Positions 3,124 through 54,930 of a stretch of 64,000 nucleotides of DNA are shown here, in pieces. Position 1 is the first letter of the stretch, and each line of letters opens with the position of its first letter. The DNA lies in IMG/VR virus record IMGVR_UViG_3300022902_000004, positions 126,268 to 190,267 of that record; one strand, given 5' to 3'. This stretch comes from a virus. A program made the translations under genes and the position numbers. Under the pieces are notes generated by a model, which saw nothing but the letters and a program-made list of their open reading frames with translations, was not told the DNA's origin and ran no database searches.

Positions 3124-3393
3124 GCCATACCTCTATACTAAATATGACTTCGAAAAAGTTAGGTGAATCTACGTAACCTTGCCGGCACTTGTTCTCTCTG
3201 GCGTCCCATTAATGCTCTTTGGTCTGGAGTGTTGTCAGACGCACTTTTTGATGTGTTGCTTGAATCAATCTCAGTAACAAACCTTTGTACAAACCATTTG
3301 CGTTGCCAAATCGGCAAATTCATCGCGTCATGAAACGTAAAGCCCATGTAATACATCAATGCAAATATAGGCTCGAGGTAGACCTCTTTGTCA

Positions 3394-4248
3394 TTAGGCG
3401 TCAGGCCAAAAAAACGAAGTGCCGATGGGCAGGTCTACCTCCGAAGACTCATAGCAACTTTCACAAGTCATAACGCACTTCATCTCGATGCCCGGCTCAT
3501 TGTCATTCATGAACTTGCGAAGTGCCCGACTGTCTCGGGCTGGCATGTTATGCACAAACATTGCTAGCTTTGAACGGTCTTCGATGTTGTCAACGGCAAC
3601 AACGGCTGCCTGGAGCCGACTGGTCACCATGCTATCGAGATCACCCGACAACTTCTTCTTTCTTTTTCGCTCTGCCGTTAGTGCAATATTTTGCTCGTCG
3701 GCGCCCGTTAGGAACCTGAACGTTACAACCTTCTTGCTGACTGGCAAAGTAAAGGTGAATTTGTTCTCGCCTGGTTCTGACGGTTCAATTTCGAGTCGCT
3801 TGATAGGAAGTTCTGCAAGACTGAATGACTGCTTTTGAGACACATCGCATTCTGGGCAAGGAATTTCGACCTCGTAATCAGAGCCGTACCCTGTAATCCT
3901 GACGGCAACCATTAGCGCATTACGGTCTCCGGAGATAAGCTGATCAACCCGGACTGCTTTGTTTACCAGACATGAACGAAGAAGTGCCGTGATGACAGTG
4001 CCCTTCTTGAGGAGAGCGCGACTGGTTAGAATATCCTCGTCCTTTGCCGTCATGGCCCGGATTTCAAGCGTTTCACAATTGTGCGCCGCCGAACCCTCTG
4101 GGTAGATTTTCCCCTGTGATGGCAGTGGTGCGGCATCAACTGGAATTTCCATTCCAAAATCTTCCCTCATCACATTTCTTGTCTGCATTCCACTAGCTTG
4201 CGCTCGCTGGGCATCGAAAACATGGTTCCCTTCTCTTTTGTTGCTCAC
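3394..4248 (-). CDS. hypothetical protein with two CxxC pairs (zinc-ribbon-like), in tail assembly/baseplate-hub position
   Basis: 284-aa ORF with GTG start preceded by SD AGGAGTG. Motifs CPEC...CESC. Lies between tail tube and TMP genes. Confidence 0.45.
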   Translation of the reverse strand: MSNKREGNHVFDAQRAQASGMQTRNVMREDFGMEIPVDAAPLPSQGKIYPEGSAAHNCETLEIRAMTAKDEDILTSRALLKKGTVITALLRSCLVNKAVRVDQLISGDRNALMVAVRITGYGSDYEVEIPCPECDVSQKQSFSLAELPIKRLEIEPSEPGENKFTFTLPVSKKVVTFRFLTGADEQNIALTAERKRKKKLSGDLDSMVTSRLQAAVVAVDNIEDRSKLAMFVHNMPARDSRALRKFMNDNEPGIEMKCVMTCESCYESSEVDLPIGTSFFWPDA

Positions 4249-4335
4249 GTATCACTCCTGTAATTGTCACCTGCATACTGTAGTCCTGTATGCACGCTTG
4301 TAAACATAAGTATAAGTGTGTGAAAGTCGTAGGAG

Positions 4336-5118
4336 TTAGTTTTCTGTGTCGTGTTTTATGTTATAAAATTCGTCTGCTGCGTTCCACAAAATATCTTCAA
4401 GCTCATGACTTGGAATGCCCAACTTAACATCAATGTATTTTTCTAGTCTTTTAAATGATGAAATCATTGATTCAACGTCTGGTTTTTTGCCCGTAAGATG
4501 GTATGATGAATCCAAAAAATTACCGAAGTTTTCTTTTCCAGGATTGTGTACGCGGGCGTCATCAGATTTTTGTGGGGTTATGGGTTTCTTTTTGTTATCT
4601 AGCGGCGTAGATTCAACGTCAGCGCGCTTGTTTTTGTAATATTTCCAGACGCGCTGAGCTGACGGTGATACACCAGGCTGCCTGTCTGGCATTAATTCAC
4701 CTGTTTCCGCCATGGCTATATCATACATGAGCGGACCAAAATTTTTCGATGCGGCTGGGCCATGCACCATACTAGCACCATTGCTGTTACTTGACGCTTT
4801 TTCTATATCAATCGTCCCCATAATGAATGATTCTGCATGTCCAGCCATTCCATCTGGAAGTATCCCGGCATGGTCGTCAAAATCGGCGAGAATGTCGCTG
4901 ACTGACACTTTACTTGCGCGGGCCATATCCTTAATTTCCTGAATTAGAAAATGTATAAACATACTCCTGTCAAAAAGAATGTACAGGATGTCGCCAGGTC
5001 CATCGCGATCCTTGTATACGGCTAACGCTAAATTGTCATTCGACGCCATTTTGGCGGTACGTGCTTTTTCTTGTAGGAGAGTTGTGCGGACGAAGGTCCT
5101 GATTGATGAGATGTTCAT
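4336..5118 (-). CDS. hypothetical protein (tail assembly module position)
   Basis: 260-aa ORF on the dominant coding strand between tube gene and TMP. No recognizable motifs. Confidence 0.4.
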   Translation of the reverse strand: MNISSIRTFVRTTLLQEKARTAKMASNDNLALAVYKDRDGPGDILYILFDRSMFIHFLIQEIKDMARASKVSVSDILADFDDHAGILPDGMAGHAESFIMGTIDIEKASSNSNGASMVHGPAASKNFGPLMYDIAMAETGELMPDRQPGVSPSAQRVWKYYKNKRADVESTPLDNKKKPITPQKSDDARVHNPGKENFGNFLDSSYHLTGKKPDVESMISSFKRLEKYIDVKLGIPSHELEDILWNAADEFYNIKHDTEN

Positions 5119-5244
5119 ATTACTAATTATCGTGCAGGATGGGTTCTGGACGTATCAATCACCAATGTGTATGTAGTATGTATTGAAATGATTCGGGAAG
5201 CACACGGGATGAGGTGGGACTGTTAGGTGATTGACATGATTGAG

Positions 5245-6048
5245 CTAGTTGTCAAAGTTCAAAGATGGATGTTCGTGCCCGTGGCAAATCTTACATAGAA
5301 CGATTCCGGATACATTTTGTGACGTGTGGTAATCAATCACTTTTTCAACGATTATTCTATTTTGTTCTGGTGTCAAGACATGACAATCAACGTCACTGCG
5401 GAACTTCTTGATTATCGCTGCCATTTTTTCTTTATCATGATGGATGTGCAATTTTGTTGTGCTTGAGCATCTTTCACACTTGAATTTTGCTGCGGCGAGC
5501 TTTGGAAATTTCCATTCGCTGTATAGTCGGTTATTTGAATGGCAAAGAGCACCGATTGTTGACGTTCCGCCTTTCCATTGCGGGTGTTCTGATCCTGTCA
5601 AAGATGGAATAATACCGGCCAATCTATTTTTTGACATTATTTTGCTATACTTTTCTCGTTTTTCGGTTGTCCATGTTTTTGCGACCGATCTTCCGGCAAT
5701 GCGGAGTCTTTCATCATCATGCTTCGTTATCCCTTTATTCCAGACAATCATTTCTCCAGATTTCAACATTTCCCGCCGGGAAGCCTGGCTTTTCTTTTGT
5801 GCGTTTTCATTGTGGCCCCAGTTATTTTTGATACGCGCTTGATGACCTGGGCAAAACTTTGAATATCCTTTTGTGATTCCATGGAATTTTGTCTTTGACA
5901 TGCAACCACAAGCACACGTAGGCTGTTTATGCTTGACAACTGCAGCCAGATATATTGCCTCGCTTGAAAGCTTATGCGCTTTTTGTGCATGAATACGCAA
6001 TGAGTTAATTTTTTCAGTTTTGTAATTACAACTTGGACATAAAAACAT
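5245..6048 (-). CDS. freestanding homing endonuclease-like protein (HNH-like with NUMOD3-like repeats and N-terminal C2H2-type zinc finger)
   Basis: N-terminal CPSC...H...H. Repeats WNKGITKHDDE / EHPQWKGG resemble NUMOD3. C-terminal KLHIHHDKE...LTPEQNRII...CKICHGHEH is HNH-like. Inserted between tube gene and tail assembly genes. Confidence 0.5.
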   Translation of the reverse strand: MFLCPSCNYKTEKINSLRIHAQKAHKLSSEAIYLAAVVKHKQPTCACGCMSKTKFHGITKGYSKFCPGHQARIKNNWGHNENAQKKSQASRREMLKSGEMIVWNKGITKHDDERLRIAGRSVAKTWTTEKREKYSKIMSKNRLAGIIPSLTGSEHPQWKGGTSTIGALCHSNNRLYSEWKFPKLAAAKFKCERCSSTTKLHIHHDKEKMAAIIKKFRSDVDCHVLTPEQNRIIVEKVIDYHTSQNVSGIVLCKICHGHEHPSLNFDN

Positions 6049-6088
6049 AGTCCCTCCCTATGACACTAGTATATCAATGGGAGGGACT
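6049..6088 (-). promoter_or_regulatory. GC-rich hairpin (AGTCCCTCCC-loop20-GGGAGGGACT) sequestering the SD of the HNH-like HEG; doubles as terminator-like structure after tail tube gene
   Basis: The 3' arm GGGAGGGACT directly abuts the HEG ATG (6048) on the minus strand, followed by UUUUUAU. Confidence 0.55.
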
Positions 6089-6117
6089 ATGTAAAACCTC
6101 GTTATCGTAACGTTACA

Positions 6118-6606
6118 TCAAAATTGAAGCACGGCGTTGTCATACCTGACCGTGAGTGCAATCTCTGATGCGTCTGACGTGCTGTAATCTAGTGCACCGA
6201 AATCAGCCGCTGTCAAGAATGCACCACGGATATCCCACAATTCAACGACTGTACCGACCGGATCAAGCATCTTCAACTGAATGTCGCGCTTGTAGAAGTC
6301 TGCGTAGCCTGCTCGACCTGAGACCGACTCGAAGTGTGTTCGAATCCATTCCATAACCTGCTGAGCGCCGGATGGAGCAATTGGGTCGTGAAGCGTAATC
6401 GATAGTGTTTCGAATGTTGCCTTGCCTGCCACATATCGTTTGTGATTGATATACGGAATTTCCAGCTCTTCAATCGCAATGTTTGGTCGCGAGGCAGTCT
6501 TCACAATGAAGGCGTCGATGCCTTCAACAGCAAGGACCCACCTAAACTGACGTTTTGGCTCAAATTTATTCGGAAGCATGTCCGTTACTGATAGTGTTTC
6601 TGCCAT
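6118..6606 (-). CDS. tail tube protein (T4 gp19-like)
   Basis: 162 aa (T4 gp19 is 163 aa). N-terminal RQFRWVLAVEGI and C-terminal ELWDIRGAF...DYSTSDASEIALTVRYDNAVLQF resemble gp19 C-terminus (LWP..VG..LDW...TFEVTLALDYWE). Lies directly downstream of the sheath genes. Confidence 0.7.
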   Translation of the reverse strand: MAETLSVTDMLPNKFEPKRQFRWVLAVEGIDAFIVKTASRPNIAIEELEIPYINHKRYVAGKATFETLSITLHDPIAPSGAQQVMEWIRTHFESVSGRAGYADFYKRDIQLKMLDPVGTVVELWDIRGAFLTAADFGALDYSTSDASEIALTVRYDNAVLQF

Positions 6607-6660
6607 TTTAATCTCCTAAGACTGAGGCTTCGTTATGTTACAGGTCTAAGTATGGTAAAC

Positions 6661-7179
6661 CTAGAATCCCGACAACACAGCTTCCATTTTTTCTGCCATC
6701 TCGTCGTAATTGCTACTTCCGTTGGCACCCATGTTGACGACCTTTCTGCCGTTTACAATGATCCACCCGTTTCTGCCGTCAATTTTTATTTCTGCATCTG
6801 GGTATCGGCGCTTGAATTTTGCCCTCAACGATTTTGCAGCAGACATTGATGCGGGACCTGCTTGGTTATAGCTTCGTTTGCGGGGCTTTCTGCCTGTCGG
6901 TGAGTAACCATAATTCTGATCGCGACCATAATTTTGTTCATTGACCTGTTTCGAAGGTGCCAGTCGATTCGTCATGATCCCATAAACGTCTCCGTTTCCA
7001 AAATCTACGTCGGCCATGTCACCCATTTTGTGCATTTTCTTGACAGTGCCTTTCCTTGTTTTACCAAAGATCTCCGTTGTAACAATATCGCCTGGTTTTA
7101 CTACCTTTCCTACTGGTTTGGCACGCCATGGTGTGCTTTCTCGAATCAAGTTTCTAATTTGTCGTCGTGTGATTTTCAT
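6661..7179 (-). CDS. MKIT-tag family protein (basic; putative capsid-targeted internal protein)
   Basis: Starts MKITRRQIRNLIRE. 172 aa, Lys/Arg-rich. SD AAGGTGGA. Paralog of the 20.7-25.4 kb cluster. Confidence 0.6.
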   Translation of the reverse strand: MKITRRQIRNLIRESTPWRAKPVGKVVKPGDIVTTEIFGKTRKGTVKKMHKMGDMADVDFGNGDVYGIMTNRLAPSKQVNEQNYGRDQNYGYSPTGRKPRKRSYNQAGPASMSAAKSLRAKFKRRYPDAEIKIDGRNGWIIVNGRKVVNMGANGSSNYDEMAEKMEAVLSGF

Positions 7180-7182
7180 GGG

Positions 7183-7440
7183 TTACATCCACCTTTGTAC
7201 TTTTCTATTGAGTACCTTCATCGCCTGATATTTGATTCCTGGTGCTCTAAAACCGCCGCCGATACGTTCAGCCTCATCGTCGATATACCTGATCAGTGAG
7301 TCAATCTCTCTTTCAACGTTTGCCATAAGGTCGTCGCGCTCCTGGTCCTCATCATCAGAAACCGTGCCGTCCGCGTTCATCTCTGAGAGGATCTTCTCTT
7401 CATTGATAAGTCTTCGTAATTGTTTTTTTGTAATTTTCAC
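7183..7440 (-). CDS. MKIT-tag family protein (acidic; putative capsid-targeted internal protein)
   Basis: GTG start, MKITKKQLRRLINEE. SD AGGAA overlaps the sheath stop codon. 85 aa, acidic C-terminus. Confidence 0.55.
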   Translation of the reverse strand: MKITKKQLRRLINEEKILSEMNADGTVSDDEDQERDDLMANVEREIDSLIRYIDDEAERIGGGFRAPGIKYQAMKVLNRKVQRWM

Positions 7441-7449
7441 GTGCTATTC

Positions 7450-10400
7450 CTAGATATTGTTGCTTACCACGAAGTCAAGCGAGACGAACTCGATTGATTT
7501 TGTTGGCTGTAAGAAGATTTTACCGCGGATGGTGTTATTCTCAATGTCAGCCTGTGTCGTTGTCGACGCGTCAATCTTGACCTTGAATCTATCCAACCCA
7601 CCTTGTGACTGGACGGCTGCCAAGATCGGTTGTACCCTCGCTTCAAATGATGCGATTGTAGATGCCTGGTTTGGCTCAAACAAGAATGTTCGTGCCACAT
7701 CTCTGACCTTTCTACGAATGTCGATTAGCAAACGTCGTACGTTCACACGGTCGAGAGCGCTCTGTGCTGCAAGCAATGTTTTCTGGCCGAATACGGTTAC
7801 TCCGGAATTTGCCTGGACGTCACCGATGATTGGGTTGACATCAGCGCTGTAAAGTGCATCACGATTTGCCTGTAGAAGCTCAACCGTTGGATACAATGCA
7901 CTCTGCAAAGCACCTCGTGAGAAGCCTGCAGGTGCGAACCAAGGATGACCAATTGCATCATTCAGTGCCATGGCACCAAGAACAACAGCCGAAGACGGTG
8001 CTTTCACATTCGTCTTGGTTGCAACATCCTGAATTACCACGTCTGGGAAGTATGCTGCCGCAAACGATGAATCCAAAGCCCTCGATTGGAAAGCGTTGAC
8101 CGTGTTCGTCACGCTGATTACCTGAGCTGATGATGTCACGAACGTGTTAACTTCGTCCTTTTCCTCGATGTCCATGACATACAATGCATCAAATCGTCGT
8201 TCGACTGATTCGATTGCGTAGTCTGTAACAGATGAGTGACGAAGTCCAGGGATTGCCAACAACTGAATGTCAACATCCTGTTTTGCTTCCATCACGTCGA
8301 CTGCTTTTCGCAACGCTGCAACGGTTGGTCCGTTCTTGCCGCCCTGCAAAGTCGAGTCATCCATCTCACGACGAACAGCCGTATCGGTGAATTTCGATTT
8401 CTCAGAGTCAAATACGTTGGTTCCGTCATATCCGCCCTGGAGTGGGAATGTGAACTTCAAGTATTTCTGGCTTGGAATGTGCGCAAAATCCTTAGTTGAA
8501 TCCAAGAATCGAACGTTGGTCTTCGAAGTTCCGTCACGGTCATCAAGCGATGATGCCTGCGTTCCATTTCGGCGATACGAAGCAGCTGCCCACTGTTGTG
8601 GGTCTGGCCTGTCATTCGATCCAGTAATAACCTGCACCCTCTCAAGAGAGAAGAAGTTGTTGTTGAAACGGTCAGCGTCGAAAATCGTTCCGCCCACGTC
8701 AGCAGCTCCAGCATTATCACCGACTAGTGGGTTCTGCCAACTTGTGTGGAATTTCGGGTAATACCTTGTGAAGGATAGCAACGATGCATCCAGTTTTTCA
8801 TTCTTGTTAGGAAGTGAAACGCTTGTCTTCGTTTCGAATTGGATTCCCCATGTGAATGACTGCTGGACGTTTTTCTTTGGTGAAGCACCGGTAGAGATCG
8901 ACTCACGCATTGGGATAGGAGGCTGAACAACCCGTTTGAGCAGATCAGATGAAATGCTGGCTGACATCGAACCTCGCAATGTGGCAAAGCTTCCTGTTAG
9001 GATTGAGCCTGCTGTTCCTGCGATTGTTGTGCCTGACGTAATCAAGTGATGAATTCCACGGAAACCTGTTGGCAATGCCGTTGGGTCCAATCGATCATTC
9101 TTCAAGTCGCTACTCAACGTCACTCGGACGTAGTTTGAAACGCTTGGGTAATCACCTTCGACAACGATCTTCTGGTTTCCAGTTGCTGCTTCGAAGTCGA
9201 AGTATGTTCGCTGGTCACCGATTCGCTTTGCAATGTAGTTGTCAGACGACGGATCCAAACTCAAGCCTCTGAATGATTCCAGAACTGCTGGGTTCAAATC
9301 GTTGTCTGTGAAGCGTCGAATCAACACATCGAAAGTGCCGTACTTATTATTCGCCTTTGATGAAGCCGCGATGTTTTCAATCGTGACCTTGACTTCGCCT
9401 GCACCGATGAGACCGTCAGACAATGTTGTTAGTCTGAACAAATCCTTGTTTGCGCCACCGAATTTCTGTGATACGACGAATGGACTGAATGCCGCCTCAA
9501 ACCTGTCCTCGAAGTTCTCGAAGTTAGGTACACCAACGGTTGTTGCCGATGTTGCAGAACCTACGTCCCGGTTGAGTGTCGAAGTCAAAAGCAAAGCAAC
9601 TGGCTCAAGATTTGTGAACCAGACTGTTGGGTTGATCACGCTTGTACCGGTCGCAACAGCAAGTGCTGGATCGATATCGTAGTGCGTATATAGATAATGC
9701 CCAGCATCTTCGATTTTCAATGGGTCTGTGTTGAGCACGTTTACGAAGTAGTTTGGAACGCTGGGGTCGAATGATGCCGTAACAACATTCTTGTATGTTG
9801 CGTTATTTTTGTGACCGTTGAATAGGAGAACGAACTCCTGCTTCGAGTTACTAACATCGACGCTACCAATGTTTCCGCCAGCATTACCGACACCTGATCC
9901 GCCAAATGATGGATAAGCGGCTTCGTTTGCAGCCGGAGCCATGTTACCAGCAAGGTCAAGTGAGTGACTCAATGCCGGGATAACACCAGAAGGTGCCATT
10001 AGCATACCACGGAGAATCGGAGTTGCGTTGACGTTCTTCTGGATGCCAGCGTCGCTAAGGTATGTTGAACCGTTTGACTCAGACATGATAGCTGCCAGCA
10101 TGTATGAACGGCCGAGCGCTCCACCTGGTAAGTTTTCAGCACCTGAATATGAGTTATCGCCGACGAGCCCGTTTGACTGGACAAGCCTATCACCAACAAC
10201 AAATCCTGCGTTGGTTACCTTGCCCTGGTTGTTACCCGTCGAGAGCCTTGCAGAACCGTCACCGGCACCAAGAACACGAACGAATACACCCGAATCGGCG
10301 TTCCTCAACCATTCACGCATTGCAATCGGTCCAAATTTTGTGCCGTCGCTATTCCCGAACGTTGAAATAAAGTCTTGAAATGTTGCCATAGTCACTGGGA

Positions 10401-10533
10401 CGAAAGCAGGACCTCGTACTGACGTTCCTACAACACCTGCAGGAATTCCAGAGGGAGAAACCTGTGTGGGTCCTGAAAGGTCAATTTCATTCGCCACTAC
10501 GCCCGGACTAACTGGAAAAGTGAATTCTGCCAT
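7450..10533 (-). CDS. contractile tail sheath protein, paralog 1 (gp18-like, ~1027 aa)
   Basis: N-terminus SPGVVANEIDLSG...GVVGTS.RGPAFVPV and C-terminus FGQKTLLAAQSALDRVNVRRLLIDIRRKV match conserved sheath N- and C-domains. Roughly 50% identical to the adjacent paralog in those domains. Confidence 0.85.
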   Translation of the reverse strand: MAEFTFPVSPGVVANEIDLSGPTQVSPSGIPAGVVGTSVRGPAFVPVTMATFQDFISTFGNSDGTKFGPIAMREWLRNADSGVFVRVLGAGDGSARLSTGNNQGKVTNAGFVVGDRLVQSNGLVGDNSYSGAENLPGGALGRSYMLAAIMSESNGSTYLSDAGIQKNVNATPILRGMLMAPSGVIPALSHSLDLAGNMAPAANEAAYPSFGGSGVGNAGGNIGSVDVSNSKQEFVLLFNGHKNNATYKNVVTASFDPSVPNYFVNVLNTDPLKIEDAGHYLYTHYDIDPALAVATGTSVINPTVWFTNLEPVALLLTSTLNRDVGSATSATTVGVPNFENFEDRFEAAFSPFVVSQKFGGANKDLFRLTTLSDGLIGAGEVKVTIENIAASSKANNKYGTFDVLIRRFTDNDLNPAVLESFRGLSLDPSSDNYIAKRIGDQRTYFDFEAATGNQKIVVEGDYPSVSNYVRVTLSSDLKNDRLDPTALPTGFRGIHHLITSGTTIAGTAGSILTGSFATLRGSMSASISSDLLKRVVQPPIPMRESISTGASPKKNVQQSFTWGIQFETKTSVSLPNKNEKLDASLLSFTRYYPKFHTSWQNPLVGDNAGAADVGGTIFDADRFNNNFFSLERVQVITGSNDRPDPQQWAAASYRRNGTQASSLDDRDGTSKTNVRFLDSTKDFAHIPSQKYLKFTFPLQGGYDGTNVFDSEKSKFTDTAVRREMDDSTLQGGKNGPTVAALRKAVDVMEAKQDVDIQLLAIPGLRHSSVTDYAIESVERRFDALYVMDIEEKDEVNTFVTSSAQVISVTNTVNAFQSRALDSSFAAAYFPDVVIQDVATKTNVKAPSSAVVLGAMALNDAIGHPWFAPAGFSRGALQSALYPTVELLQANRDALYSADVNPIIGDVQANSGVTVFGQKTLLAAQSALDRVNVRRLLIDIRRKVRDVARTFLFEPNQASTIASFEARVQPILAAVQSQGGLDRFKVKIDASTTTQADIENNTIRGKIFLQPTKSIEFVSLDFVVSNNI

Positions 10534-10559: not shown

Positions 10560-13500
10560 TTATTCAAAACTTACGCCATTGTTTGTAATAATGAAGTCAA
10601 CCGAGATGAACTCAATCGCTCGGGTGGGCTTCACTTTGATTTGACCACGAAGTTTGTTCTGGTCAATTTCCGCCTTTGTGTTATTGCTTTCATCACAAAT
10701 AACCTGGAATGCTTCGATTCCCTGTCGGGCTTGAACGTATGTCAGCTCACGGATTGAATCAGCAGAGAACTTCTTTCGAGTTGTCGCATCATTCTGTTCG
10801 AATGCAAGACCTTGCGCGATAGAACGAATCCTTCGCTTTACGTCAATCAACATCCTTCTTGTGTTGATTCTGTTTAGTGCCGTTTGTGCAACCTGTAGCG
10901 TTTTCTGGCCGAAGATTACGTAGCCTGATCGTGGGAACGTTGCGATTGGGTTGATTTTAGCATCGTATAGAGAATCCCTATCCTTTGCTGACAACCTATT
11001 CTCAACGTTTTTCACGAAGCCTAGCGCTCCACGGTTGAAGCCTGCCGGAGCAAACCAAACCTGCTGGACACGGTCGTTGAAACCTAGTGCGCCCATTGCG
11101 GCAACAGACGGTGGAACCTGAACGACCCGGTTATTCACCTTGTCCTCGATTGTAACATCTGGGAAGTATGTCGCGACGTAGTTGTTATCAATCGCACGTG
11201 TTTCGAACTGGTCAATTGTCTTTGTGACATCAGAATTTGCTTCAGAGTCGTCGTACAATCGGTTCGAGCTCTTGTCGAATTCCACAGCATCCATAACATA
11301 CAATGCAAGACCGTATTTCTTGACCGCATCTGAAGCATGGTCGGTTACGAATGGCTCTCTCACACCAGGGATTGCCAACAGGTTGATCCTTGATGAGATT
11401 GGGTTTGTGATGATGTCCACAGCGGTTCGAATCGATGCAACATTGTTGTTGAGTCGTCCGCCGCCCGCCTGGTTAGCAGTTCCGATTAGTGCAAGACCAA
11501 TTCTGTCTGCGGCTCCGGGTGTTGGTTGTGCTTTACCGCCTGTGTCAGATGACAATGCTTTGTCACGGAAGTATCCTTGGTCTTCATCAAGGATGTTCGT
11601 TCCGTCAAATCCACCGTAGAACACGTTTGTGAACTTGTGGTACTCGGTGAAGCGATTGAACAGTGCCGATGATGTTGCGATCAACGACGCCATGGTGATT
11701 CGTCCTGTCCGTGCACCGTCAGTAACGGTGTATGTGGATGGGTTCGGACGACCATTTCGTACGTATGCAGCTTGGAGCATGTGCTCTCGGGCTGTGCCGG
11801 TGACTTGCGTCGTGACATCAGAAAGCTGTGTTGCGGCATTATATAGGGCCACTCGTGCCAAGGTGAATTTGTTATCGTTGAAGAAGTCTGCACCGGAACC
11901 GGTTACCAAACTGTCCATCTTCGAGATACCCTGGAACTTCGTGTATGTTCTAACAAGTGGGTTGATTCCTGCACCTTCATTTGAACGAAGGACCGCATCA
12001 GTGATACCGAGTGTCGAATCGTTGCTTGATGAAACAGGCAGCGGATCAGTTTTGACGCCCCAGTATAGTCGACCGTCAACACGTTCTGTGCTGCCAGGAT
12101 CGCCTAGGAATGTTGGGCTTATACCCTGGACTGCACCCTTCGTCACTTTCACTCGGAAAGGAAGAGGAGGTACGATAGAACCGGTGGTGGCCATAACTGA
12201 TGTGCCTGATGTATGGTAAACACCAAGGCGACGCCTTGTTACATCACCAATTGTTTCTCCGTTGAGACCTGTAAGTGCCGTTGAGCTATCAGTCAGCGTA
12301 TCAGTCGTCTTGATGACCGGAACTCCCCGGAAACCGAATGGCAACGAAGTTTTTGGAACCTTCTCCAACTCAACCTGCTCATTCATTACGATCCGAACAC
12401 GCTGCGAAACGTTCGGGTATTTTCCTGTTACAACTAGGCGGCGCTCATCTGGTGATTCCTGGTCCCAATCAAATCGAACCTTTTTGTCGCCAATGAGGCG
12501 TGCAACGTATCGCTCAGAGTTCGGGCCAAGTGAGCAGTTCGGGTACCTTTCCAGAATTGCTGAATTGCCGTCGCTGTCCTCGAATGATCTGATTTGCACC
12601 TCGAACAAACCGTATGGTTGTTTTTCGTTTGTGCTTGCTCGCAGACCTGCAATCGAAACCTTGAATTTTTCGTTGGCGTAAACACCATCGTCAATTGTTT
12701 CAAAACTGAACAAGTCATACTCAGCATCACCATATGGCTGTGAGATGAAATTCGTTGTTCGTGGAGTCTGGTATCGTGTATCATATCGACCGAATAGCTG
12801 CATAAACCCGACCGGAGTTCCGGCGGATGTGCTTTTGTTCGCTGAACCTGAAACCAACGCGACAGTTGGTACAACACTTGAAATCACAGGAGCAAGTGCA
12901 TGCTCGACTGCGAAATCGAGGTAAAGCAGATGCTCTTCCTCTTGGAACTTGAGTGGATCTGTGTTCAGGACCTTGCCGATGTAGTTCGCGTCGTGGGGAT
13001 CGAGTGAGGCGGTCAGAATTTTGATTCCGTCATAGCCTTCATCATACGCCCAGTCTTTTCCAGACGAAGAGCTAAGAATCAGTTTGAAATATTTGTTTTG
13101 TGTCAATGGGCTGGATGGAATTGAACCGACGAGTGCCGAGTTGTACCCGGGCGCAGACTGATCAGCGTAGGTTCCTGTATTGTCTAGCGCCATCATTCTT
13201 GTGCCAGTGGCGAGCAAAACTGCGCCCCGGACGAGGTTCATAGACGATGCATTGTTGATGCTGCTATTGTCAGTAAACATCGGGTAGCCATTTGTTTCAT
13301 CGTTTGCAACAGCATCATGCCGCGCGACGATGAACTGGACAAGCCCTTGACTGCCAGGCAAATCAGTATTCAACGAATCGCTGCCTGTAATTCTAAATCC
13401 TGCATTCTTGACAATTCCTGACCCGCGGGTGTTTGAAATATCGGTCGCAGTCTCATTTGCACCGGCACCGAGTAATCTCACATATGTAAGTGCTGTCCTA

Positions 13501-13727
13501 TTGTCAAGCCACTGCTTAACAGCATATGGACCAAACCGCTTTGCGTTGAGTGTTCCAAATTTTGTTTCGAAATCAGCGAAAGATCCGACAGTAACCGGAA
13601 CGAATGCCGGTCCTTTCTCAGATGTGCCGACAACACCGGCTGGCACACCCGTTGGCGCAACCTGCTGACCTGATAGGTCTATTTCCTGGTCGAAAAATCC
13701 AGGAGATCGAAATGTTTGCTCAGCCAT
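10560..13727 (-). CDS. contractile tail sheath protein, paralog 2 (gp18-like, ~1055 aa)
   Basis: N-terminus SPGFFDQEIDLSG...GVVGTSEKGPAFVPV, C-terminus FGQKTLQVAQTALNRINTRRMLIDVKRRIR. SD AAGGAGAAAAC. Collinear homology with paralog 1 throughout. Confidence 0.85.
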   Translation of the reverse strand: MAEQTFRSPGFFDQEIDLSGQQVAPTGVPAGVVGTSEKGPAFVPVTVGSFADFETKFGTLNAKRFGPYAVKQWLDNRTALTYVRLLGAGANETATDISNTRGSGIVKNAGFRITGSDSLNTDLPGSQGLVQFIVARHDAVANDETNGYPMFTDNSSINNASSMNLVRGAVLLATGTRMMALDNTGTYADQSAPGYNSALVGSIPSSPLTQNKYFKLILSSSSGKDWAYDEGYDGIKILTASLDPHDANYIGKVLNTDPLKFQEEEHLLYLDFAVEHALAPVISSVVPTVALVSGSANKSTSAGTPVGFMQLFGRYDTRYQTPRTTNFISQPYGDAEYDLFSFETIDDGVYANEKFKVSIAGLRASTNEKQPYGLFEVQIRSFEDSDGNSAILERYPNCSLGPNSERYVARLIGDKKVRFDWDQESPDERRLVVTGKYPNVSQRVRIVMNEQVELEKVPKTSLPFGFRGVPVIKTTDTLTDSSTALTGLNGETIGDVTRRRLGVYHTSGTSVMATTGSIVPPLPFRVKVTKGAVQGISPTFLGDPGSTERVDGRLYWGVKTDPLPVSSSNDSTLGITDAVLRSNEGAGINPLVRTYTKFQGISKMDSLVTGSGADFFNDNKFTLARVALYNAATQLSDVTTQVTGTAREHMLQAAYVRNGRPNPSTYTVTDGARTGRITMASLIATSSALFNRFTEYHKFTNVFYGGFDGTNILDEDQGYFRDKALSSDTGGKAQPTPGAADRIGLALIGTANQAGGGRLNNNVASIRTAVDIITNPISSRINLLAIPGVREPFVTDHASDAVKKYGLALYVMDAVEFDKSSNRLYDDSEANSDVTKTIDQFETRAIDNNYVATYFPDVTIEDKVNNRVVQVPPSVAAMGALGFNDRVQQVWFAPAGFNRGALGFVKNVENRLSAKDRDSLYDAKINPIATFPRSGYVIFGQKTLQVAQTALNRINTRRMLIDVKRRIRSIAQGLAFEQNDATTRKKFSADSIRELTYVQARQGIEAFQVICDESNNTKAEIDQNKLRGQIKVKPTRAIEFISVDFIITNNGVSFE

Positions 13728-13808
13728 GTTTTCTCCTTAGCTTCAAATGTTCAAGAAGCGTCCATTGTAAGTATCCTCGAGAATGCAAAAATCAAATATT
13801 TCATGCAA

Positions 13809-15758: not shown

Positions 15759-16928
15759 TTATCCTATGAAAATCGCGCGCCCATTTGGAGTTGGGATGCT
15801 TCGTAATATTTTTTGTAGACTCTCGACCGCAGCAGCTTCTACTTCGACAAGTTTCTCGTATGTAGTTGACTCTAGCATTTCTCGCAATGATGTCACCAAT
15901 TTCTCTTTGTCTTCTCGGCCATGCGTCAGCAATTCCTGCCCATTGAGACTAAGATCGCCGCCTGGAATTGGGACAGATGCGAACTTTGTTCGAATCCAAC
16001 CGAGTAGCTCCATCGCAAGTGCCATGGCATATTGTCTGACCCACTGACGGCCGATGGAGTTGATTTTCGAGAATTGAATGTTTCCAAACGGAATGTTTGA
16101 CAGGTTTGAAACGCCGTAAATTGACGGATCATTAATGTCTGGATCCGTCGGATCAGGCTCAAACATTACCCTCATCCACAACTTCTGTGGATCGTATGAC
16201 GATGGCACTGGAAATATTCGAATGTTTTGGCCAACAATTTTGTACGTGTAGTTTGACCGCCTAACCCTGTTCGACAAATCAAGCATTCCGCCACGCAAGA
16301 TGTCCTCAAATACAGGTAGCACGTAAAAAACTGTTTCTGGTGTGAAAGACTCGAACGAGAACTCGTTTGCAAGATAATTCGTTGCAGATGACTGGTTGAA
16401 AAAACGATATGCAGCGTGAGGATTGAAATGAAACACTTCCATGATTTTCATTTTGCCTCCAGTTTTATTGAGGCTAGAATCGACGAGTGGGTCGCCGGCG
16501 GCATCGTTTAGCGTTTCATAGATGTTGTAGTCTTGTTGGCCTTTCACTAATGTGATTGAGCCTGAGGCTGCATTGTATGAGCCACCCAAACCCGCCTGCA
16601 TCGCATACGGCTCTGCTTTCCTGAGAAAGAACTCTAGAGTCTCGCGTGAATATTTCTGCTCTTGGCCTTCTAGCGATCCTGTAGCGACGCCCAAGAAGTT
16701 TGCCAGTTGGCTCTTGGCTTGGTACTCATTTACAATTTTTCCGTATTCGAAGAGCGACTCTTCAAGGCACATCCAAATCATCTTTTTCGTTAACTCGACG
16801 CTAAGAACATCATCGCCGAGCTTTCGCTTGACAAACAGAACGAGACTGTCTGCTTCACTTTGAAATGCTAAGTCAGAATCAAAAATGCCATACGGTGTTG
16901 GGTTTAGTGTATTTAGAAAACTCGCCAT
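15759..16928 (-). CDS. hypothetical structural protein (neck/tail module position)
   Basis: 389-aa ORF. SD AGGTGAGG before ATG. First gene of the long operon running through sheath and tube. Confidence 0.5.
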   Translation of the reverse strand: MASFLNTLNPTPYGIFDSDLAFQSEADSLVLFVKRKLGDDVLSVELTKKMIWMCLEESLFEYGKIVNEYQAKSQLANFLGVATGSLEGQEQKYSRETLEFFLRKAEPYAMQAGLGGSYNAASGSITLVKGQQDYNIYETLNDAAGDPLVDSSLNKTGGKMKIMEVFHFNPHAAYRFFNQSSATNYLANEFSFESFTPETVFYVLPVFEDILRGGMLDLSNRVRRSNYTYKIVGQNIRIFPVPSSYDPQKLWMRVMFEPDPTDPDINDPSIYGVSNLSNIPFGNIQFSKINSIGRQWVRQYAMALAMELLGWIRTKFASVPIPGGDLSLNGQELLTHGREDKEKLVTSLREMLESTTYEKLVEVEAAAVESLQKILRSIPTPNGRAIFIG

Positions 16929-16971
16929 AATTCGACCTCACCTATAAATATCAGTGAGGGGAGACGGCGAG

Positions 16972-23861: not shown

Positions 23862-24100
23862 TCGTAATCCTGGTACACCGTGTTTTGGCTTTGTTGGCCG
23901 TCTCTTCGTCTGCCGGCCACAGATCGACGAACTGCTTGAATACATTTATCAACAATCGTCGCGGCCTGATAGTGTCCTGCTTCTTCTAGTTTCCATATTG
24001 CACTGCCGAGACTTTGTATCGCCTCACTAACTAGTCGAGCTTTTTCGTTTGAGGAGGTTTCTTTTACCAGCTTCCTGAGTTGAGATTCTGTGATTTTCAT
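23858..24100 (-). CDS. MKIT-tag family protein (putative internal protein)
   Basis: MKITESQLRKLVKE. SD AAGGTAGG. Translationally coupled (ATGA overlaps). Confidence 0.6.
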   Translation of the reverse strand: MKITESQLRKLVKETSSNEKARLVSEAIQSLGSAIWKLEEAGHYQAATIVDKCIQAVRRSVAGRRRDGQQSQNTVYQDYE

Positions 24101-24576: not shown

Positions 24577-24815
24577 TGTGACCTTCCTATCAGGGTCAGG
24601 GCAATCGCCCGAATGACAGGCAGCTTCCCAACTTGTTCACCGTGTGTCGCGAGCTCTTTCGCAATTGCTTGACAAAACTCTTTCTTTCCCAACAGGCTTT
24701 CGATGGCTTTTTGTTCGTCTGGGCCTAACTGATTGAATAGCTGTTCTGCCCGATCGGTTTTGCCTTCAGCTTGCTCTCGGATTAGTTTCCTGAGCTGTGT
24801 TTCTGTGATTTTCAT
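24573..24815 (-). CDS. MKIT-tag family protein (putative internal protein)
   Basis: MKITETQLRKLIRE. SD GGTGGAGAA. Confidence 0.6.
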   Translation of the reverse strand: MKITETQLRKLIREQAEGKTDRAEQLFNQLGPDEQKAIESLLGKKEFCQAIAKELATHGEQVGKLPVIRAIALTLIGRSQ

Positions 24816-25112: not shown

Positions 25113-25149
25113 CCAAAGACGAAGGGCTCCCAGATTTCTCCAGGAGCCC
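25113..25149 (-). terminator. hairpin terminator after first MKIT-family gene
   Basis: Minus-strand RNA reads GAAGGGCUCC-loop12-GGAGCCCUUC followed by GUCUUUGG. Confidence 0.5.
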
Positions 25150-25180
25150 TTCAAACGTTTAGCTAACCGAAGCTAGCCAG

Positions 25181-26508: not shown

Positions 26509-26546
26509 AAAAAGGAAAAGGCGCCCTTTGTGGGGGCGCCTTTCCA
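26509..26546 (-). terminator. intrinsic terminator downstream of major capsid gene (GC hairpin GGCGCCC/GGGCGCC + U-tract), palindromic and potentially bidirectional
   Basis: Minus-strand RNA reads GGCGCCCCCACAAAGGGCGCC UUUUCCUUUUU. Preceded by a second AU-rich 8-bp hairpin (26549..26568). Confidence 0.7.
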
Positions 26547-26574: not shown

Positions 26575-28473
26575 CTAGATAACGTTCATGTCAAGACATG
26601 TCACAGTTCCGTAGAAATCGTTACGGACCATTTTCTTACCGTACCGAGTCATCACGCCCTTTCGAGGAGTGAAGTCTTCCGGTGCGAAGATGGTAGGAGT
26701 CACGATCAGCGGGACGTAAGGAGCGTAGACGTATCCTGTCTCCAGGTAGCTTCCGCCCTTGTATCCAACCAGAATCTGGTTGCGTGGGAAGTAAGGGTCC
26801 TTGTAAACCGAGAATCGATTCGACAGGGTACCAACCTTCTCAGCACCGATAACCATCGGGCCAACCTGTCCGTCAGCGTCAAGCGAGAAGCTTGGCTTGT
26901 ACAGGATTGAAGACTCGAAGATTGTTGCAACATCCGGGCCGACAACGATGAAGTTAGCCGAACCACGTAGCGTCTTACGATGAATCTCGTTAGCAACGTC
27001 GATGATGGTCTCGATAAGAGTCTCGTACCACTCTCGAACTGTACCGGTGAATGCCGGGCCAGGTGTCAACGAGTTTGTACGGTTGACTTCGATACCAGTC
27101 TGCTTGTTGAGGAACTTACCTGGGCTACGTGACCAGTAGAAGCGCGCAGCTCCAGCCTGTGTCAGCAAGTCATTCAAGATCTCTCGGTCAAGCTCCATTG
27201 CGATCTGCTCGGACAGGATGTGTGTCAGCTCAACCTCAGCGTCAAGGCTGTGGTAAGCGTTCAGGTCCTGTGCCATTTCTGGCGACCAGCGGGCACGCAA
27301 CTTACGAGTCTCAGCCACAACAGCGATTGACTCGATCTTGATGTCGATTTCTGGGATTGCAGGTGATGGGTCGACCGCGAAGTCAGACTCGAACGAAGGA
27401 ATGACCAACGTATCACCAGTGTTTGCAGCCGAATCGAGTGCAGCAGCCAATGGCTTAGCAAGCACGGTTGCAGGAGCAGCGAGGCCGCCCTGGTTAGCAC
27501 CAGACACAATCATCAAGAGCGCTGCGTTAGCATCGCCTGCCTTGACCAAGCCGTTAGGCGTGAAGTTTGTGCCGTCCCAGGTTCCCATCTGGTTCAATCG
27601 ACGGATGTTAGCTGTGCTACCACCCTGGATTGCGTTACCATTGGTGTCGTTTCCAACAACCTTGTATGGGGCCACTGGAGCCAACGAGAAGTCCTTAGAC
27701 AACGTAAGGTCAGCATCACCGAAGAGCGTACCACCTGAAGCCAACGAAACCACGAGTGCGTGATATACAGCAGAACCTGTAAGAGCACCCGGTCCGCCAC
27801 CAACTGGTGCCGCGTTGTTCTCGATTGCGTTTGTGATTTGCGGGTCGTACTGAAGCAACTTGCCGTCAGAACCTGTTGCAGCCAATGTTTTAGCATTGCT
27901 GAACACTGTTCCGGAACCGAAAGCACCTGATGCCGACAATGAAACTGCAGCAGTCACACCGTAAACTCGAGAGTAACCCGAGCCAGCAAGGTCGTACTGA
28001 CCACCAACGCCCTGCGAACCAGACTGAACGCCTTTACCCGCTGGGCTGTTGTAAATTGACGAACCTGAAGAATAAGGTGTCGCCGCGCCGACCGAACCTG
28101 CCATGTTTCCACCGTAGGTGTAGTCCATGTAGAAGAGCAGTCCGGAAGGAAGGCTCATTGGCTGGATCGAAACAAGGTCGTTCGCAATCAATCCACCGAA
28201 GACTCGGCGAACCAATGGGAATGCGATGTTTGTGAAACCACGAAGGTCACCAGACGAGGTTCCGTTAGCGCCACCGGTCGAAATCGATGATGCTTCCTTG
28301 ATAACCTGGCCAGCCTGACTTTCGAGCAAGCGCGCCATGTTCTCTCGTTTCGTGCCGTCAAGGCCGCGAAGAAGACCAGTACGGTTCCACTTCTCGATGA
28401 GTAGTTTGTTTTGCGAGCCGACGTGACGTTTTTGAATCCCCTCGGTTAGCATTTCTAGATTAAATGTAGACAT
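26575..28473 (-). CDS. major capsid protein (T4 gp23-like)
   Basis: 632 aa. IAFPLVRRVFGGLIANDLVSIQPMSLPSGLLF aligns with gp23 MVRRAIPNLIAFDICGVQPMNSPTGQVF. C-terminus YFPRNQILVGYKGG...GYVYAPYVPL...TRYG aligns with gp23 DYFTVGYKGP...GIYYAPYVAL...TRYG. Putative LLE|S processing site near residue 51. SD AAGGAG. Confidence 0.9.
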   Translation of the reverse strand: MSTFNLEMLTEGIQKRHVGSQNKLLIEKWNRTGLLRGLDGTKRENMARLLESQAGQVIKEASSISTGGANGTSSGDLRGFTNIAFPLVRRVFGGLIANDLVSIQPMSLPSGLLFYMDYTYGGNMAGSVGAATPYSSGSSIYNSPAGKGVQSGSQGVGGQYDLAGSGYSRVYGVTAAVSLSASGAFGSGTVFSNAKTLAATGSDGKLLQYDPQITNAIENNAAPVGGGPGALTGSAVYHALVVSLASGGTLFGDADLTLSKDFSLAPVAPYKVVGNDTNGNAIQGGSTANIRRLNQMGTWDGTNFTPNGLVKAGDANAALLMIVSGANQGGLAAPATVLAKPLAAALDSAANTGDTLVIPSFESDFAVDPSPAIPEIDIKIESIAVVAETRKLRARWSPEMAQDLNAYHSLDAEVELTHILSEQIAMELDREILNDLLTQAGAARFYWSRSPGKFLNKQTGIEVNRTNSLTPGPAFTGTVREWYETLIETIIDVANEIHRKTLRGSANFIVVGPDVATIFESSILYKPSFSLDADGQVGPMVIGAEKVGTLSNRFSVYKDPYFPRNQILVGYKGGSYLETGYVYAPYVPLIVTPTIFAPEDFTPRKGVMTRYGKKMVRNDFYGTVTCLDMNVI

Positions 28474-28516
28474 TATATGTTCTCCTTTGAACTTAAGTAT
28501 TGTTGTCTATGACTTT

Positions 28517-30267: not shown

Positions 30268-30308
30268 CCATAACCTCTTGCAACTAAGTATTCGGTAACT
30301 TTGGAAAA

Positions 30309-31724: not shown

Positions 31725-31764
31725 AAAATTCTCCTTCGCCTTGTGGGCTCTTGTCTAAATATGC

Positions 31765-44742: not shown

Positions 44743-45741
44743 TTATGACATAATTTTTAGTTCGCGTAAATCGTGTTCTGTTATGAATCGATATTCGTTG
44801 ATCCCTTCAGACTCACAGAATTTTCGGGATGCTAATGCTTTTTGTTGAACTTTTTCTGTGTTTATAAACATTGACGGTTTCACTTCCCATATTTGTCTTG
44901 TTCCGTCACTAAATTCAACCAAAAAATCAGGAATATACCACCTTTTTTCCCCATTGTAACGATATGGAATTTTAATTGTTTCATATCCATATGATGCTAC
45001 ATTATCATCATTGTCGAGAAAGTTCATTGTTATTAGTTCCCAACCGGAACGATAGAACATTTTCTTGCCTGTTTTTGGTGAAACGTGTTCACCGGCTTGG
45101 CGATTTTTTCCGTACGGCTTTATTTTGCCAGCTAACATCATTTCTGCACGTTTTAGCGACATAATTGCCTTAGATTCAACAGTATGGCACTTTCCATACA
45201 TCGGATTGTTTTTTCCCTTCGAGCGATTTGAATTACGTTGCTCGGCGCTCATTTTCTTTTTTGATTCTTCGCTATGCTTTCGACCTGTCCATGGGTGAAC
45301 ATATGTCCCTTCTTTTTGCTTTTTACGAATTGTACGACTAATATTTGCACGGGCTTCTGGCGTCATACTTTTCTCATGCCAAATCGCATAAGTTTCTGGG
45401 TTTTTTGATTTCCATGATCCGTAACATTGAGGTTTGCAAAAGCTTCCATGAATTTCATTTGGGGCAGCCTGAGACGTCCATCGCTCAATTAGTTTTCCGC
45501 AATCTCTGCAGTTTGCTTTTGTTATTGCTGCACCGTGACCGCCGAAGCCGTCAGACTTACGATGACCGTATGTACATTTTTTTGAACATCGATGTATTTT
45601 TGCTCTTACGTATGCAGTTCTATATTTTCCAGCACGCTCAAACGTCGAACCACAAATATCACATTTGATGACTACAACCGTTGGTGGATTACCAGGAGCG
45701 CCCGGTCTTTTTCTTGGAAGTTGTTTTATTTCTATGATCAT
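44743..45741 (-). CDS. freestanding homing endonuclease-like protein (NUMOD3-like repeats + PD-(D/E)xK)
   Basis: HPWTGRKHSEESKKKMSAEQR and NNPMYGKCHTVESKAIMS are NUMOD3-like. C-terminal WYIPDFLVEF...IWEVKP. Paralogous architecture to 25465..26460. Confidence 0.55.
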   Translation of the reverse strand: MIIEIKQLPRKRPGAPGNPPTVVVIKCDICGSTFERAGKYRTAYVRAKIHRCSKKCTYGHRKSDGFGGHGAAITKANCRDCGKLIERWTSQAAPNEIHGSFCKPQCYGSWKSKNPETYAIWHEKSMTPEARANISRTIRKKQKEGTYVHPWTGRKHSEESKKKMSAEQRNSNRSKGKNNPMYGKCHTVESKAIMSLKRAEMMLAGKIKPYGKNRQAGEHVSPKTGKKMFYRSGWELITMNFLDNDDNVASYGYETIKIPYRYNGEKRWYIPDFLVEFSDGTRQIWEVKPSMFINTEKVQQKALASRKFCESEGINEYRFITEHDLRELKIMS

Positions 45742-45781
45742 GTTTCTAAGTATAGCGTCATCTCAGAAAATGTATAGGAAA

Positions 45782-54870: not shown

Positions 54871-54930
54871 GGTTTCTCCTATAATGATTGCCGGATAATG
54901 AGGTCCCGCACATAACTAAATATCACATAC

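Follow-up and report, generated by a model that had tools for sequence, protein, structure and literature searches.

A conserved hairpin at the start of a putative homing endonuclease gene behind the tail tube gene of an uncultured T4-like phage, a candidate RNA-level insulating switch

The silencing of homing endonuclease genes (HEGs) by a hairpin combined with an internal promoter has been worked out in phage T4 and a few close relatives. Here, we describe a candidate for such a device in 64,000 nucleotides (nt) of the virus record IMGVR_UViG_3300022902_000004 (positions 126,268 to 190,267 of the record; this whole stretch is referred to as the window), where a long hairpin on the minus strand lies between a gene for the tail tube and a 267-amino-acid (aa) open reading frame (ORF) that appears to be a free-standing HEG. 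We think it probable that this hairpin is an RNA-level insulating switch travelling with a free-standing HNH HEG inserted directly 3' of the tube gene. In the described systems, i.e., T4 I-TevI, I-TevII, I-TevIII, and segB and mobE of Aeromonas phage Aeh1, a hairpin that sequesters the ribosome-binding site (RBS) is accompanied by an internal promoter (PMC2988022, section 12), and this promoter is located in or beside the hairpin and gives transcripts without the 5' arm (PMC2988022, section 12). The initial annotation of the window had cited this precedent correctly. The initiation regions of the T4 late genes e (lysozyme), soc, 49, 25, and 26 are masked in long early transcripts and freed in transcripts from late promoters (PMC3014915, section 29).

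Like the T4 and Aeh1 HEG hairpins, the stem in the window holds the Shine-Dalgarno sequence (SD) of the HEG, and here also the AUG, against read-through from upstream, and a candidate promoter is located in the hairpin, from which transcripts would lack the 5' arm. By its structure the hairpin would belong to the I-TevI/segB/mobE class, with promoter and read-through placed at the level of consensus matches. Several features set it apart, however: the HEG represents a different and apparently undescribed family (C2H2 zinc finger plus HNH), the candidate promoter looks sigma-70-like with an extended -10 rather than of the late TATAAATA type or the ATAYTTA type of the phage itself, the gene upstream is a late structural gene, so that the masked read-through would be late rather than early or middle, and the hairpin, with a U-tract behind it, probably takes the place of the tube terminator. 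The same structure/promoter logic is seen for T4 e, soc, 49, 25, and 26, although these are ordinary phage genes with a late TATAAATA promoter (the T4 late-promoter element), while the gene in the window would be a mobile element. With Rho-independent terminators, the hairpin shares a GC-rich stem followed by a U-rich tract directly after a highly expressed gene; unlike in those, its loop is 20 nt long, structured, and promoter-like instead of a tetraloop, and its 3' arm looks like a functional SD and directly adjoins a start codon. Finally, the HEG sits at a fixed site between conserved genes with a patchy distribution, as do the free-standing phage HNH HEGs (T4 mobA-E, Aeh1 mobE), from which it differs by the C2H2 zinc finger at its N-terminus and by its CxCxC..H module.

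The initial annotation had reported a 10-bp GC-rich inverted repeat with a 20-nt loop. These arms, AGTCCCTCCC (6088..6079) and GGGAGGGACT (6058..6049), are present on the minus strand with 20 nt between them. However, the perfect stem is 14 bp and not 10 (Table 1), which means that the ATG is buried along with the SD, and the loop is not open but holds an inner 6-bp helix. The hairpin had been placed immediately after the tube stop, and it does lie just 3' of the tube gene, with the stem beginning 25 nt past the stop codon (6120..6118). The identification of the 3' arm as the SD of the HEG was borne out, and the U-run noted for the minus-strand RNA was found within codons 2 and 3 of the ORF, while the single base said to separate the arm from the ATG does not exist, since the 10-bp arm touches the ATG (0 nt between). 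Translational coupling to the tube stop was considered as well and rejected, because a terminating ribosome would not reach a stem 25 nt away.

RNA folding, the check that had been proposed for this structure, gave a stable hairpin for 6125..6020(-) with a minimum free energy (MFE) of -43.7 kcal/mol, compared to -19.4 +/- 3.0 kcal/mol for 200 dinucleotide shuffles (z = -8.2, none as good). Among the perfect local inverted repeats of the 64-kb window, the 14-bp stem is the longest; by our own arithmetic, the chance expectation for 14-bp repeats with a loop of at most 40 nt is ~0.01. When the RNA 5' end was placed at 6100-6250, as in read-through RNA, SD and AUG were paired with a probability of 1.0. 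Opening of 6060..6034 cost 30.6 kcal/mol in read-through RNA versus 6.7 kcal/mol if the RNA starts at 6061. An Rfam scan of the hairpin returned no family at the gathering score, the single hit being RsaJ with 21.4 bits versus a gathering score of 100. As the hairpin is also conserved in the family with co-varying arms (see below), the elements of RBS masking that can be checked in silico all hold, and the sequestration proposed in the initial annotation is supported.

All loci used for comparison were taken from one viral-contig collection, among the matches listed, and the frequencies given here are rough. Start regions (-70..+15) of 58 distinct HEG homologues were compared with those of 61 tube genes and 40 other window genes. 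Mean MFE was -22.9 kcal/mol for the HEG homologues, -9.9 kcal/mol for the tube starts, and -14.3 kcal/mol for the window genes, and the probability of -18..+3 being paired was 0.71 for the HEGs versus 0.41 for tube starts and 0.50 for window genes (Mann-Whitney p = 1.6e-18 and 6.9e-11, respectively). A hairpin with a Watson-Crick score of at least 7 was present in 47 of the 58 distinct loci, the one in the window being the most stable among all 58 homologues. Two variants could be distinguished. In variant A (31 distinct loci, including the window), the 5' arm is a pyrimidine-rich anti-SD and the 3' arm a purine-rich SD; a U-tract and then the ATG usually come next. In variant B (13 distinct loci: L097, L106, L110, L119, L120, L125, L139, L143, L147, L152, L153, L159, and L160; ~45 nt before the HEG start), an upstream arm pairs with the ATG and codons 2-4 in longer RNA. 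Variant B has no SD at a usable distance but carries an extended -10, TGGTATAyT, with TTGACA or TATACA as the -35 17 nt upstream; since this -10 ends 6-7 nt before the ATG, a leaderless mRNA is predicted.

A MAFFT alignment of the 31 variant-A hairpins was +/-1 nt out of structural register, and RNAalifold gave no pairs for it. For this reason, covariation was assessed with alignment-free tests (chimeric arms, G·T/A·C asymmetry, and loop-anchored register). The 3' arms differ in all 31 variant-A hairpins. Cognate 5' and 3' halves folded with -17.6 kcal/mol versus -6.1 kcal/mol for chimeras, and the cognate partner was the best one in 28 of 31 rows. In the loop-anchored register, which is derived from the structure and leans towards pairing, 91% of cells were paired versus 44-53% with the partner slid. 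From the window to its sister contig L081, the pair G6087-C6050 becomes A-U, the two arms carry matching indels, and A-U to G-U and U-G to U-A changes leave the inner helix intact. With stems defined strand-neutrally, i.e., with Watson-Crick pairs alone scoring, internal stem imperfections were G·T in 34 cases versus A·C in 1 (binomial p = 2e-9), and the sense strand folded better than the antisense strand in 42 of 44 cases. G·U mismatches on the sense strand indicate that selection acts on the RNA, and this strand asymmetry rules out that the object under selection is a palindrome of double-stranded DNA, be it an operator or a cruciform. The structure thus co-varies among related phages and, judging from these comparisons, is maintained by selection.

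A sigma-70 scan revealed a promoter-like site in the hairpin, overlooked in the initial annotation, with the configuration TTTACA-16-TGaTATACT (10/12 match plus TG). The gene strand of the whole window contains 2 sites of at least 10/12 plus TG, compared to 0.4 expected per strand from shuffles, and the hairpin site is the only one of at least 10/12 in the whole window that is close upstream (20 nt) of a start codon. As the -35 overlaps the foot of the 5' arm and the loop holds the -10, transcription is predicted to start at ~6060-6062, 3 nt 5' of the 3' arm. The site is kept in L081 as TTTACA-17-TGgTATACT and partly in L082, where the -35-like TTTACA is conserved. Among the 31 variant A and 13 variant B homologues, promoter-like motifs were more frequent in the loops than expected: in variant A, TATNNT was observed in 17/31 (8.5 expected) and ATAYTTA in 9/31 (0.8 expected), and in variant B, ATAYTTA in 7/13 (0.1 expected) and TGnTAnnnT in 8/13 (0.3 expected).

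ATAYTTA(G/T) is probably the late-promoter element of the phage, being present 19 times on the gene strand versus 3 times on the other, nearly always in intergenic regions and 12-90 nt upstream of starts. The possibility that the loop itself is such a late-type promoter was rejected, as GATATACTAG fits ATAYTTA at only 5/7 positions. A second, smaller promoter-in-hairpin was noted at 16935-16965 (-) (CCUCACU / AGGUGAGG; local fold z = -2.5), whose loop contains the late-type motif ATATTTAT and whose 3' arm is the SD of the neck/head-tail adaptor-like gene behind it (15759..16928, phrog_211). This points to a more general use of the device by the phage, as in T4. At 45742-45753 (-), the late-type ATACTTAG ends 4 nt before the ATG of the gene at 44743..45741, a distance that suggests a leaderless or near-leaderless late mRNA.

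The 267-aa ORF belongs to a family of >170 homologous clusters, essentially all unnamed, and loci with such a HEG beside the tube gene number at least 217 in IMG/VR. Its alignment displays an N-terminal C2H2 zinc finger, CxCxC...H, NNWGHN, HPQWKGG, and a C-terminal CxxC...HVHHD...CxxCH...H, and the conserved His/Cys metal ligands of an HNH (beta-beta-alpha-metal) domain are present. The structural neighbours of the ORF are the T5 SciA nicking endonuclease and GVE2 HNH, and the HNH assignment, drawn from structure, is of moderate strength. Sequence profiles from Pfam, PHROG, and PDB did not recognise the nuclease domain and matched the zinc finger alone, and the HEG could not be related by sequence to seg or mob. 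Nothing relevant on a HEG family tied to the tube gene turned up in a literature search. Among the 80 closest tube-gene loci of viral contigs, ~4 carry the HEG, and most simply have tube gene, classic terminator, and baseplate gene in succession. In contrast, 75/75 HEG-homologue loci examined (L081-L174) have a tube gene with the HEG directly 3' of it and on the same strand; 9-310 nt (at most 174 nt in all but one) separate the two genes, and the tube proteins are 38-99% identical to that of the window; the baseplate gene comes after the HEG wherever the locus extends that far. With this patchy presence at a constant site 3' of the tube gene, the ORF behaves as a free-standing HEG, as the initial annotation had called it, and the zinc-finger/HNH family is apparently a site-specific, undescribed family of such genes.

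A footprint of insertion was found in one contig pair. L009, which has the HEG, corresponds to the HEG-less L003 plus a block of hairpin and HEG between 22-nt direct repeats, which mark the boundaries of a cassette insertion, and L009 keeps the resident terminator and a downstream TTTACA promoter-like sequence after the HEG. In this pair, the in silico comparison thus shows the hairpin as part of the apparent HEG cassette. Direct repeats were not found around the cassette of the window itself, unlike in L009. Compared to its sister contig L001, the window has flanking proteins that are 98-99% identical, a HEG that is 87% identical, and a 260-aa ORF (ORF260) downstream that is 69% identical (aa); at the nucleotide level, identity was ~92% for the tube gene, ~84% for the HEG, and ~65% for ORF260, and no clean mosaic boundary was seen at the hairpin between these two contigs. 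In L002 (695-790), a HEG-less contig with a tube 88% identical, a HEG-type hairpin (GATCCTCCC...GGGGGGATT) follows the same post-tube leader and is succeeded by a 6-codon mini-ORF at the would-be HEG start; this hairpin could have been left behind when a HEG was lost, or it could reflect the state before an insertion.

In the mechanism that we propose, the tube gene is the upstream source of read-through transcripts reaching the HEG. These would originate at the late-type promoter ATACTTAG in front of the tube gene, run past the tube stop, and fold into the 14+6-bp hairpin that in silico buries SD and AUG. With both buried, the HEG would be left untranslated on the abundant late tube mRNA. Less certainly, the hairpin and U-run may also terminate or attenuate part of the tube transcripts, replacing the terminator of HEG-less relatives. 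The sigma-70-like promoter across the 5' arm and loop, pointed to by its consensus match and conservation, would start an RNA at ~6061 without the 5' arm, and this short RNA, with SD and AUG accessible, would be the sole translatable HEG message. The rationale would be that a potentially harmful nuclease, encoded behind a late message that is among the most abundant, is held at a low level by the module.

Several points weigh against this mechanism. Its functional steps are all ones that we infer. The SD of an RNA started at 6061 is still predicted to be ~60% paired in weak local structure, and only 4 nt separate GGAGG from the AUG, which is a short spacing for an SD. The promoter is a candidate by consensus match alone, whose loop fits the late motif of the phage no better than described above, and the remaining sigma-70-like sites of at least 10/12 in the window are mostly intragenic chance matches. 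A simple terminator scan did not flag the hairpin, owing to its long loop with an internal 2x2 bulge, and the U-run may be just an A/U-rich SD-AUG spacer or coding sequence (Phe-Leu). Moreover, ~6-8 of the 58 homologous loci have no convincing hairpin.

The hairpin could alternatively be a plain Rho-independent terminator of the highly expressed tube gene, with the SD/AUG overlap as a by-product of tight packing and no translational regulation. In 47 of 61 distinct loci of HEG-less relatives, this place is indeed taken by a tetraloop terminator (dG -9 or lower) that ends in a T-run, UUUUUAUGU comes after the hairpin in the window, and at least 6 U are found in the 9 nt after the last G/C in 25 of the 31 variant-A homologues. 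Besides the hairpin, the tube-to-baseplate interval of the window holds no terminator-like site, nor is there one between the tube stop and the hairpin. The U-tract, the absence of another terminator-like site in the interval, and the classic terminator of the HEG-less relatives make a dual role as terminator/attenuator and RBS mask plausible, as termination and masking are not mutually exclusive. We nevertheless regard a terminator without masking as unlikely: an SD-like motif is present in the 3' arm of 28/31 HEG-linked hairpins versus 13/47 of the ordinary tube terminators, the latter have tight tetraloops while the HEG-linked loops are longer, AT-rich, and enriched in promoter-like motifs, variant B buries the AUG though a U-tract is found in only 1/13, and L009 has both the resident terminator, kept downstream, and a hairpin that came with the HEG. 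Processing sites of T7 and lambda give the size range of RNase III substrates, and the 14+6-bp coaxial helix with its 2x2 internal loop is within it. Such a ~20-bp helix, located between a very abundant and a rare message, could be cleaved by an RNase III-type enzyme or block 3' exonucleases, uncoupling the tube mRNA, with masking being secondary. This is quite unlikely in our view, given that many homologue stems are 10-13 bp, too short for RNase III, and that the conserved placement of SD and AUG in the stem and the conserved promoter-like loops would be left unexplained.

It could also be argued that the ORF is not mobile, but an accessory phage gene (zinc-finger/HNH, tail- or packaging-related) for which the hairpin sets a low, timed expression. 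The invariable post-tube position next to tube proteins of such varied identity would fit this, as would the lack of an HNH match in Pfam, the nuclease activity of the ORF being only predicted. A resident accessory gene is, however, hard to reconcile with the presence of the ORF in so few of the closest tube loci, with the insertion footprint flanked by repeats, and with its faster divergence than the flanks; a fixed site beside a conserved gene is, in addition, typical of free-standing HEGs (PMC2988022, Table 1). We therefore hold this alternative to be very unlikely, and the hairpin mechanism would be the same either way. A perfect 14-bp inverted repeat overlapping a promoter-like site might, lastly, be a DNA-level palindrome, i.e., the operator of a dimeric repressor or that of the endonuclease (I-TevI binds an operator over its own promoter), a cruciform, or a recombination site. 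There is precedent in the T4 intron endonucleases, which autorepress at promoter-overlapping operators (PMC2988022, section 10). This explanation is largely refuted at the family level and has hardly any credibility left, as the excess of G·T over A·C and the better folding of the sense strand are expected only of a sense-strand RNA (or single-stranded DNA) structure, and as the arms, all different in sequence, offer no common protein-recognition sequence beyond the SD core.

More tentatively, and with slightly less than even confidence, we suggest that the hairpin combines a terminator, an internal promoter, and an RBS/AUG mask in one portable insulator, moving with a large zinc-finger/HNH HEG family whose homing site in aquatic T4-like myoviruses would be the position just behind the tube gene (3'), with variant B achieving the same via a leaderless mRNA started 6-7 nt after the extended -10 in its loop. 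Such a module would let a parasite sit behind a heavily transcribed late gene without over-expression, and the tube-to-baseplate expression ratio would be undisturbed by the HEG. While the kind of mechanism is not new, the hairpin-plus-internal-promoter device would be extended to dozens of very divergent uncultured T4-like phages, with clear co-variation at the RNA level, and the HEG family to which it is joined would be new and strictly inserted beside the tube gene. The cassette seemingly carries its own terminator-like hairpin, as a selfish gene that insulates itself from the structural operon and limits its cost to it. For annotation, the 267-aa 'hypothetical protein' family could be labelled as putative tube-gene-associated HNH homing endonuclease and the hairpin in front of it as a regulatory element. 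How widely the hairpin is conserved, its clean RNA-level signal, and the tube-specific HEG family should be useful for work on phage mobile elements.

The genes in this part of the window are all on the minus strand (Table 1), and the spacer between the tube gene and the 267-aa ORF is 69 nt. Judged by its gp19-like tube, T4-type baseplate protein, and sheath, the phage is T4-like. No DNA similarity matches to 4300-7500 were found among known phages, and an annotated close relative was thus not at hand. L175-L178, from at least 4 other metagenome assemblies, share 3.2-3.8 kb of the tube-HEG locus with 100% identity, and with these four contigs identical, no information could be drawn from population variants. 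The contigs shown for L175-L178 are up to 184 kb, with 318 kb as the longest in the cluster record. ORF260 did not match any family in Pfam or PHROG and is missing in most relatives, being found only in the sister contig; it may be a cargo gene that evolves fast or has been exchanged, or it may represent a second insertion.

Table 1. Features of the tube-HEG locus and related elements, in window coordinates unless a contig is named
Feature	Position	Strand	Remarks
Tail sheath gene	7450..10533	-	First in transcription order in this part of the window
Two small ORFs	6661..7179, 7183..7440	-	Between sheath and tube genes
ATACTTAG, late-promoter-like motif	6646..6653	-	ATAYTTA-type; upstream of tube gene
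Tail tube gene, gp19-like	6118..6606	-	phrog_4542 E = 3.6e-30; Pfam gp19 weak
-35-like hexamer TTTACA	6090..6095	-	Overlaps base of 5' arm
5' arm ACATAGTCCCTCCC, anti-SD and anti-AUG strand	6079..6092	-	14/14 Watson-Crick pairs with 6045..6058
Extended -10-like TGaTATACT	6068..6076	-	In loop; TG 6076..6075, TATACT 6073..6068
Inner 6-bp helix UGAUAU/GUGUCA	6076..6071 / 6066..6061	-	Two G·U pairs, ACUA tetraloop; in MFE and centroid structures
3' arm GGGAGGGACTATGT	6045..6058	-	Contains SD GGGAGGGA (6058..6051) and ATG (6048..6046)
U-run UUUUU	6041..6045	-	Begins at final stem position; U at 7/9 nt after last G/C
267-aa ORF, putative free-standing homing endonuclease	5245..6048	-	Zinc finger plus putative HNH
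260-aa ORF (ORF260)	4336..5118	-	Between HEG and baseplate gene; may or may not belong to the cassette
T4-type baseplate gene	3394..4248	-	PF12322 E = 1.2e-16
ATAYTTA(G/T) sites	3138-3145, 4306-4313, 6646-6653, 13767-13774, 16944-16951, others	-	Mostly before structural-gene starts
Further ATAYTTA(G/T) sites	28493-28500, 30284-30291, 31755-31762, 45746-45753, 54916-54923	-	
22-nt direct repeat TAAyCAAAAGTGCATGTTATGCT	L009 640-700 and 1455-1490		One copy in L003 (6490-6530)

Some further features of the window were noted. Two large tail-sheath paralogues are arranged in tandem (7450..10533 and 10560..13727, minus strand; 1027 and 1055 aa), both with sheath C-terminal domains. The small ORFs at 6661..7179 and 7183..7440 share the N-terminus MKITxxQLRxLIxE with ORFs starting near 23946-24100 and 24577-24800 (-), and the same N-terminus is found in L014-L020 and L038. 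These ORFs form a multi-copy family scattered among structural genes, and in some relatives a member is located directly after the tube gene. Perfect 10-bp GC-rich hairpins at 26517-26543, just after the major head protein gene (26575..28473), and at 25121-25152 are probably ordinary terminators.

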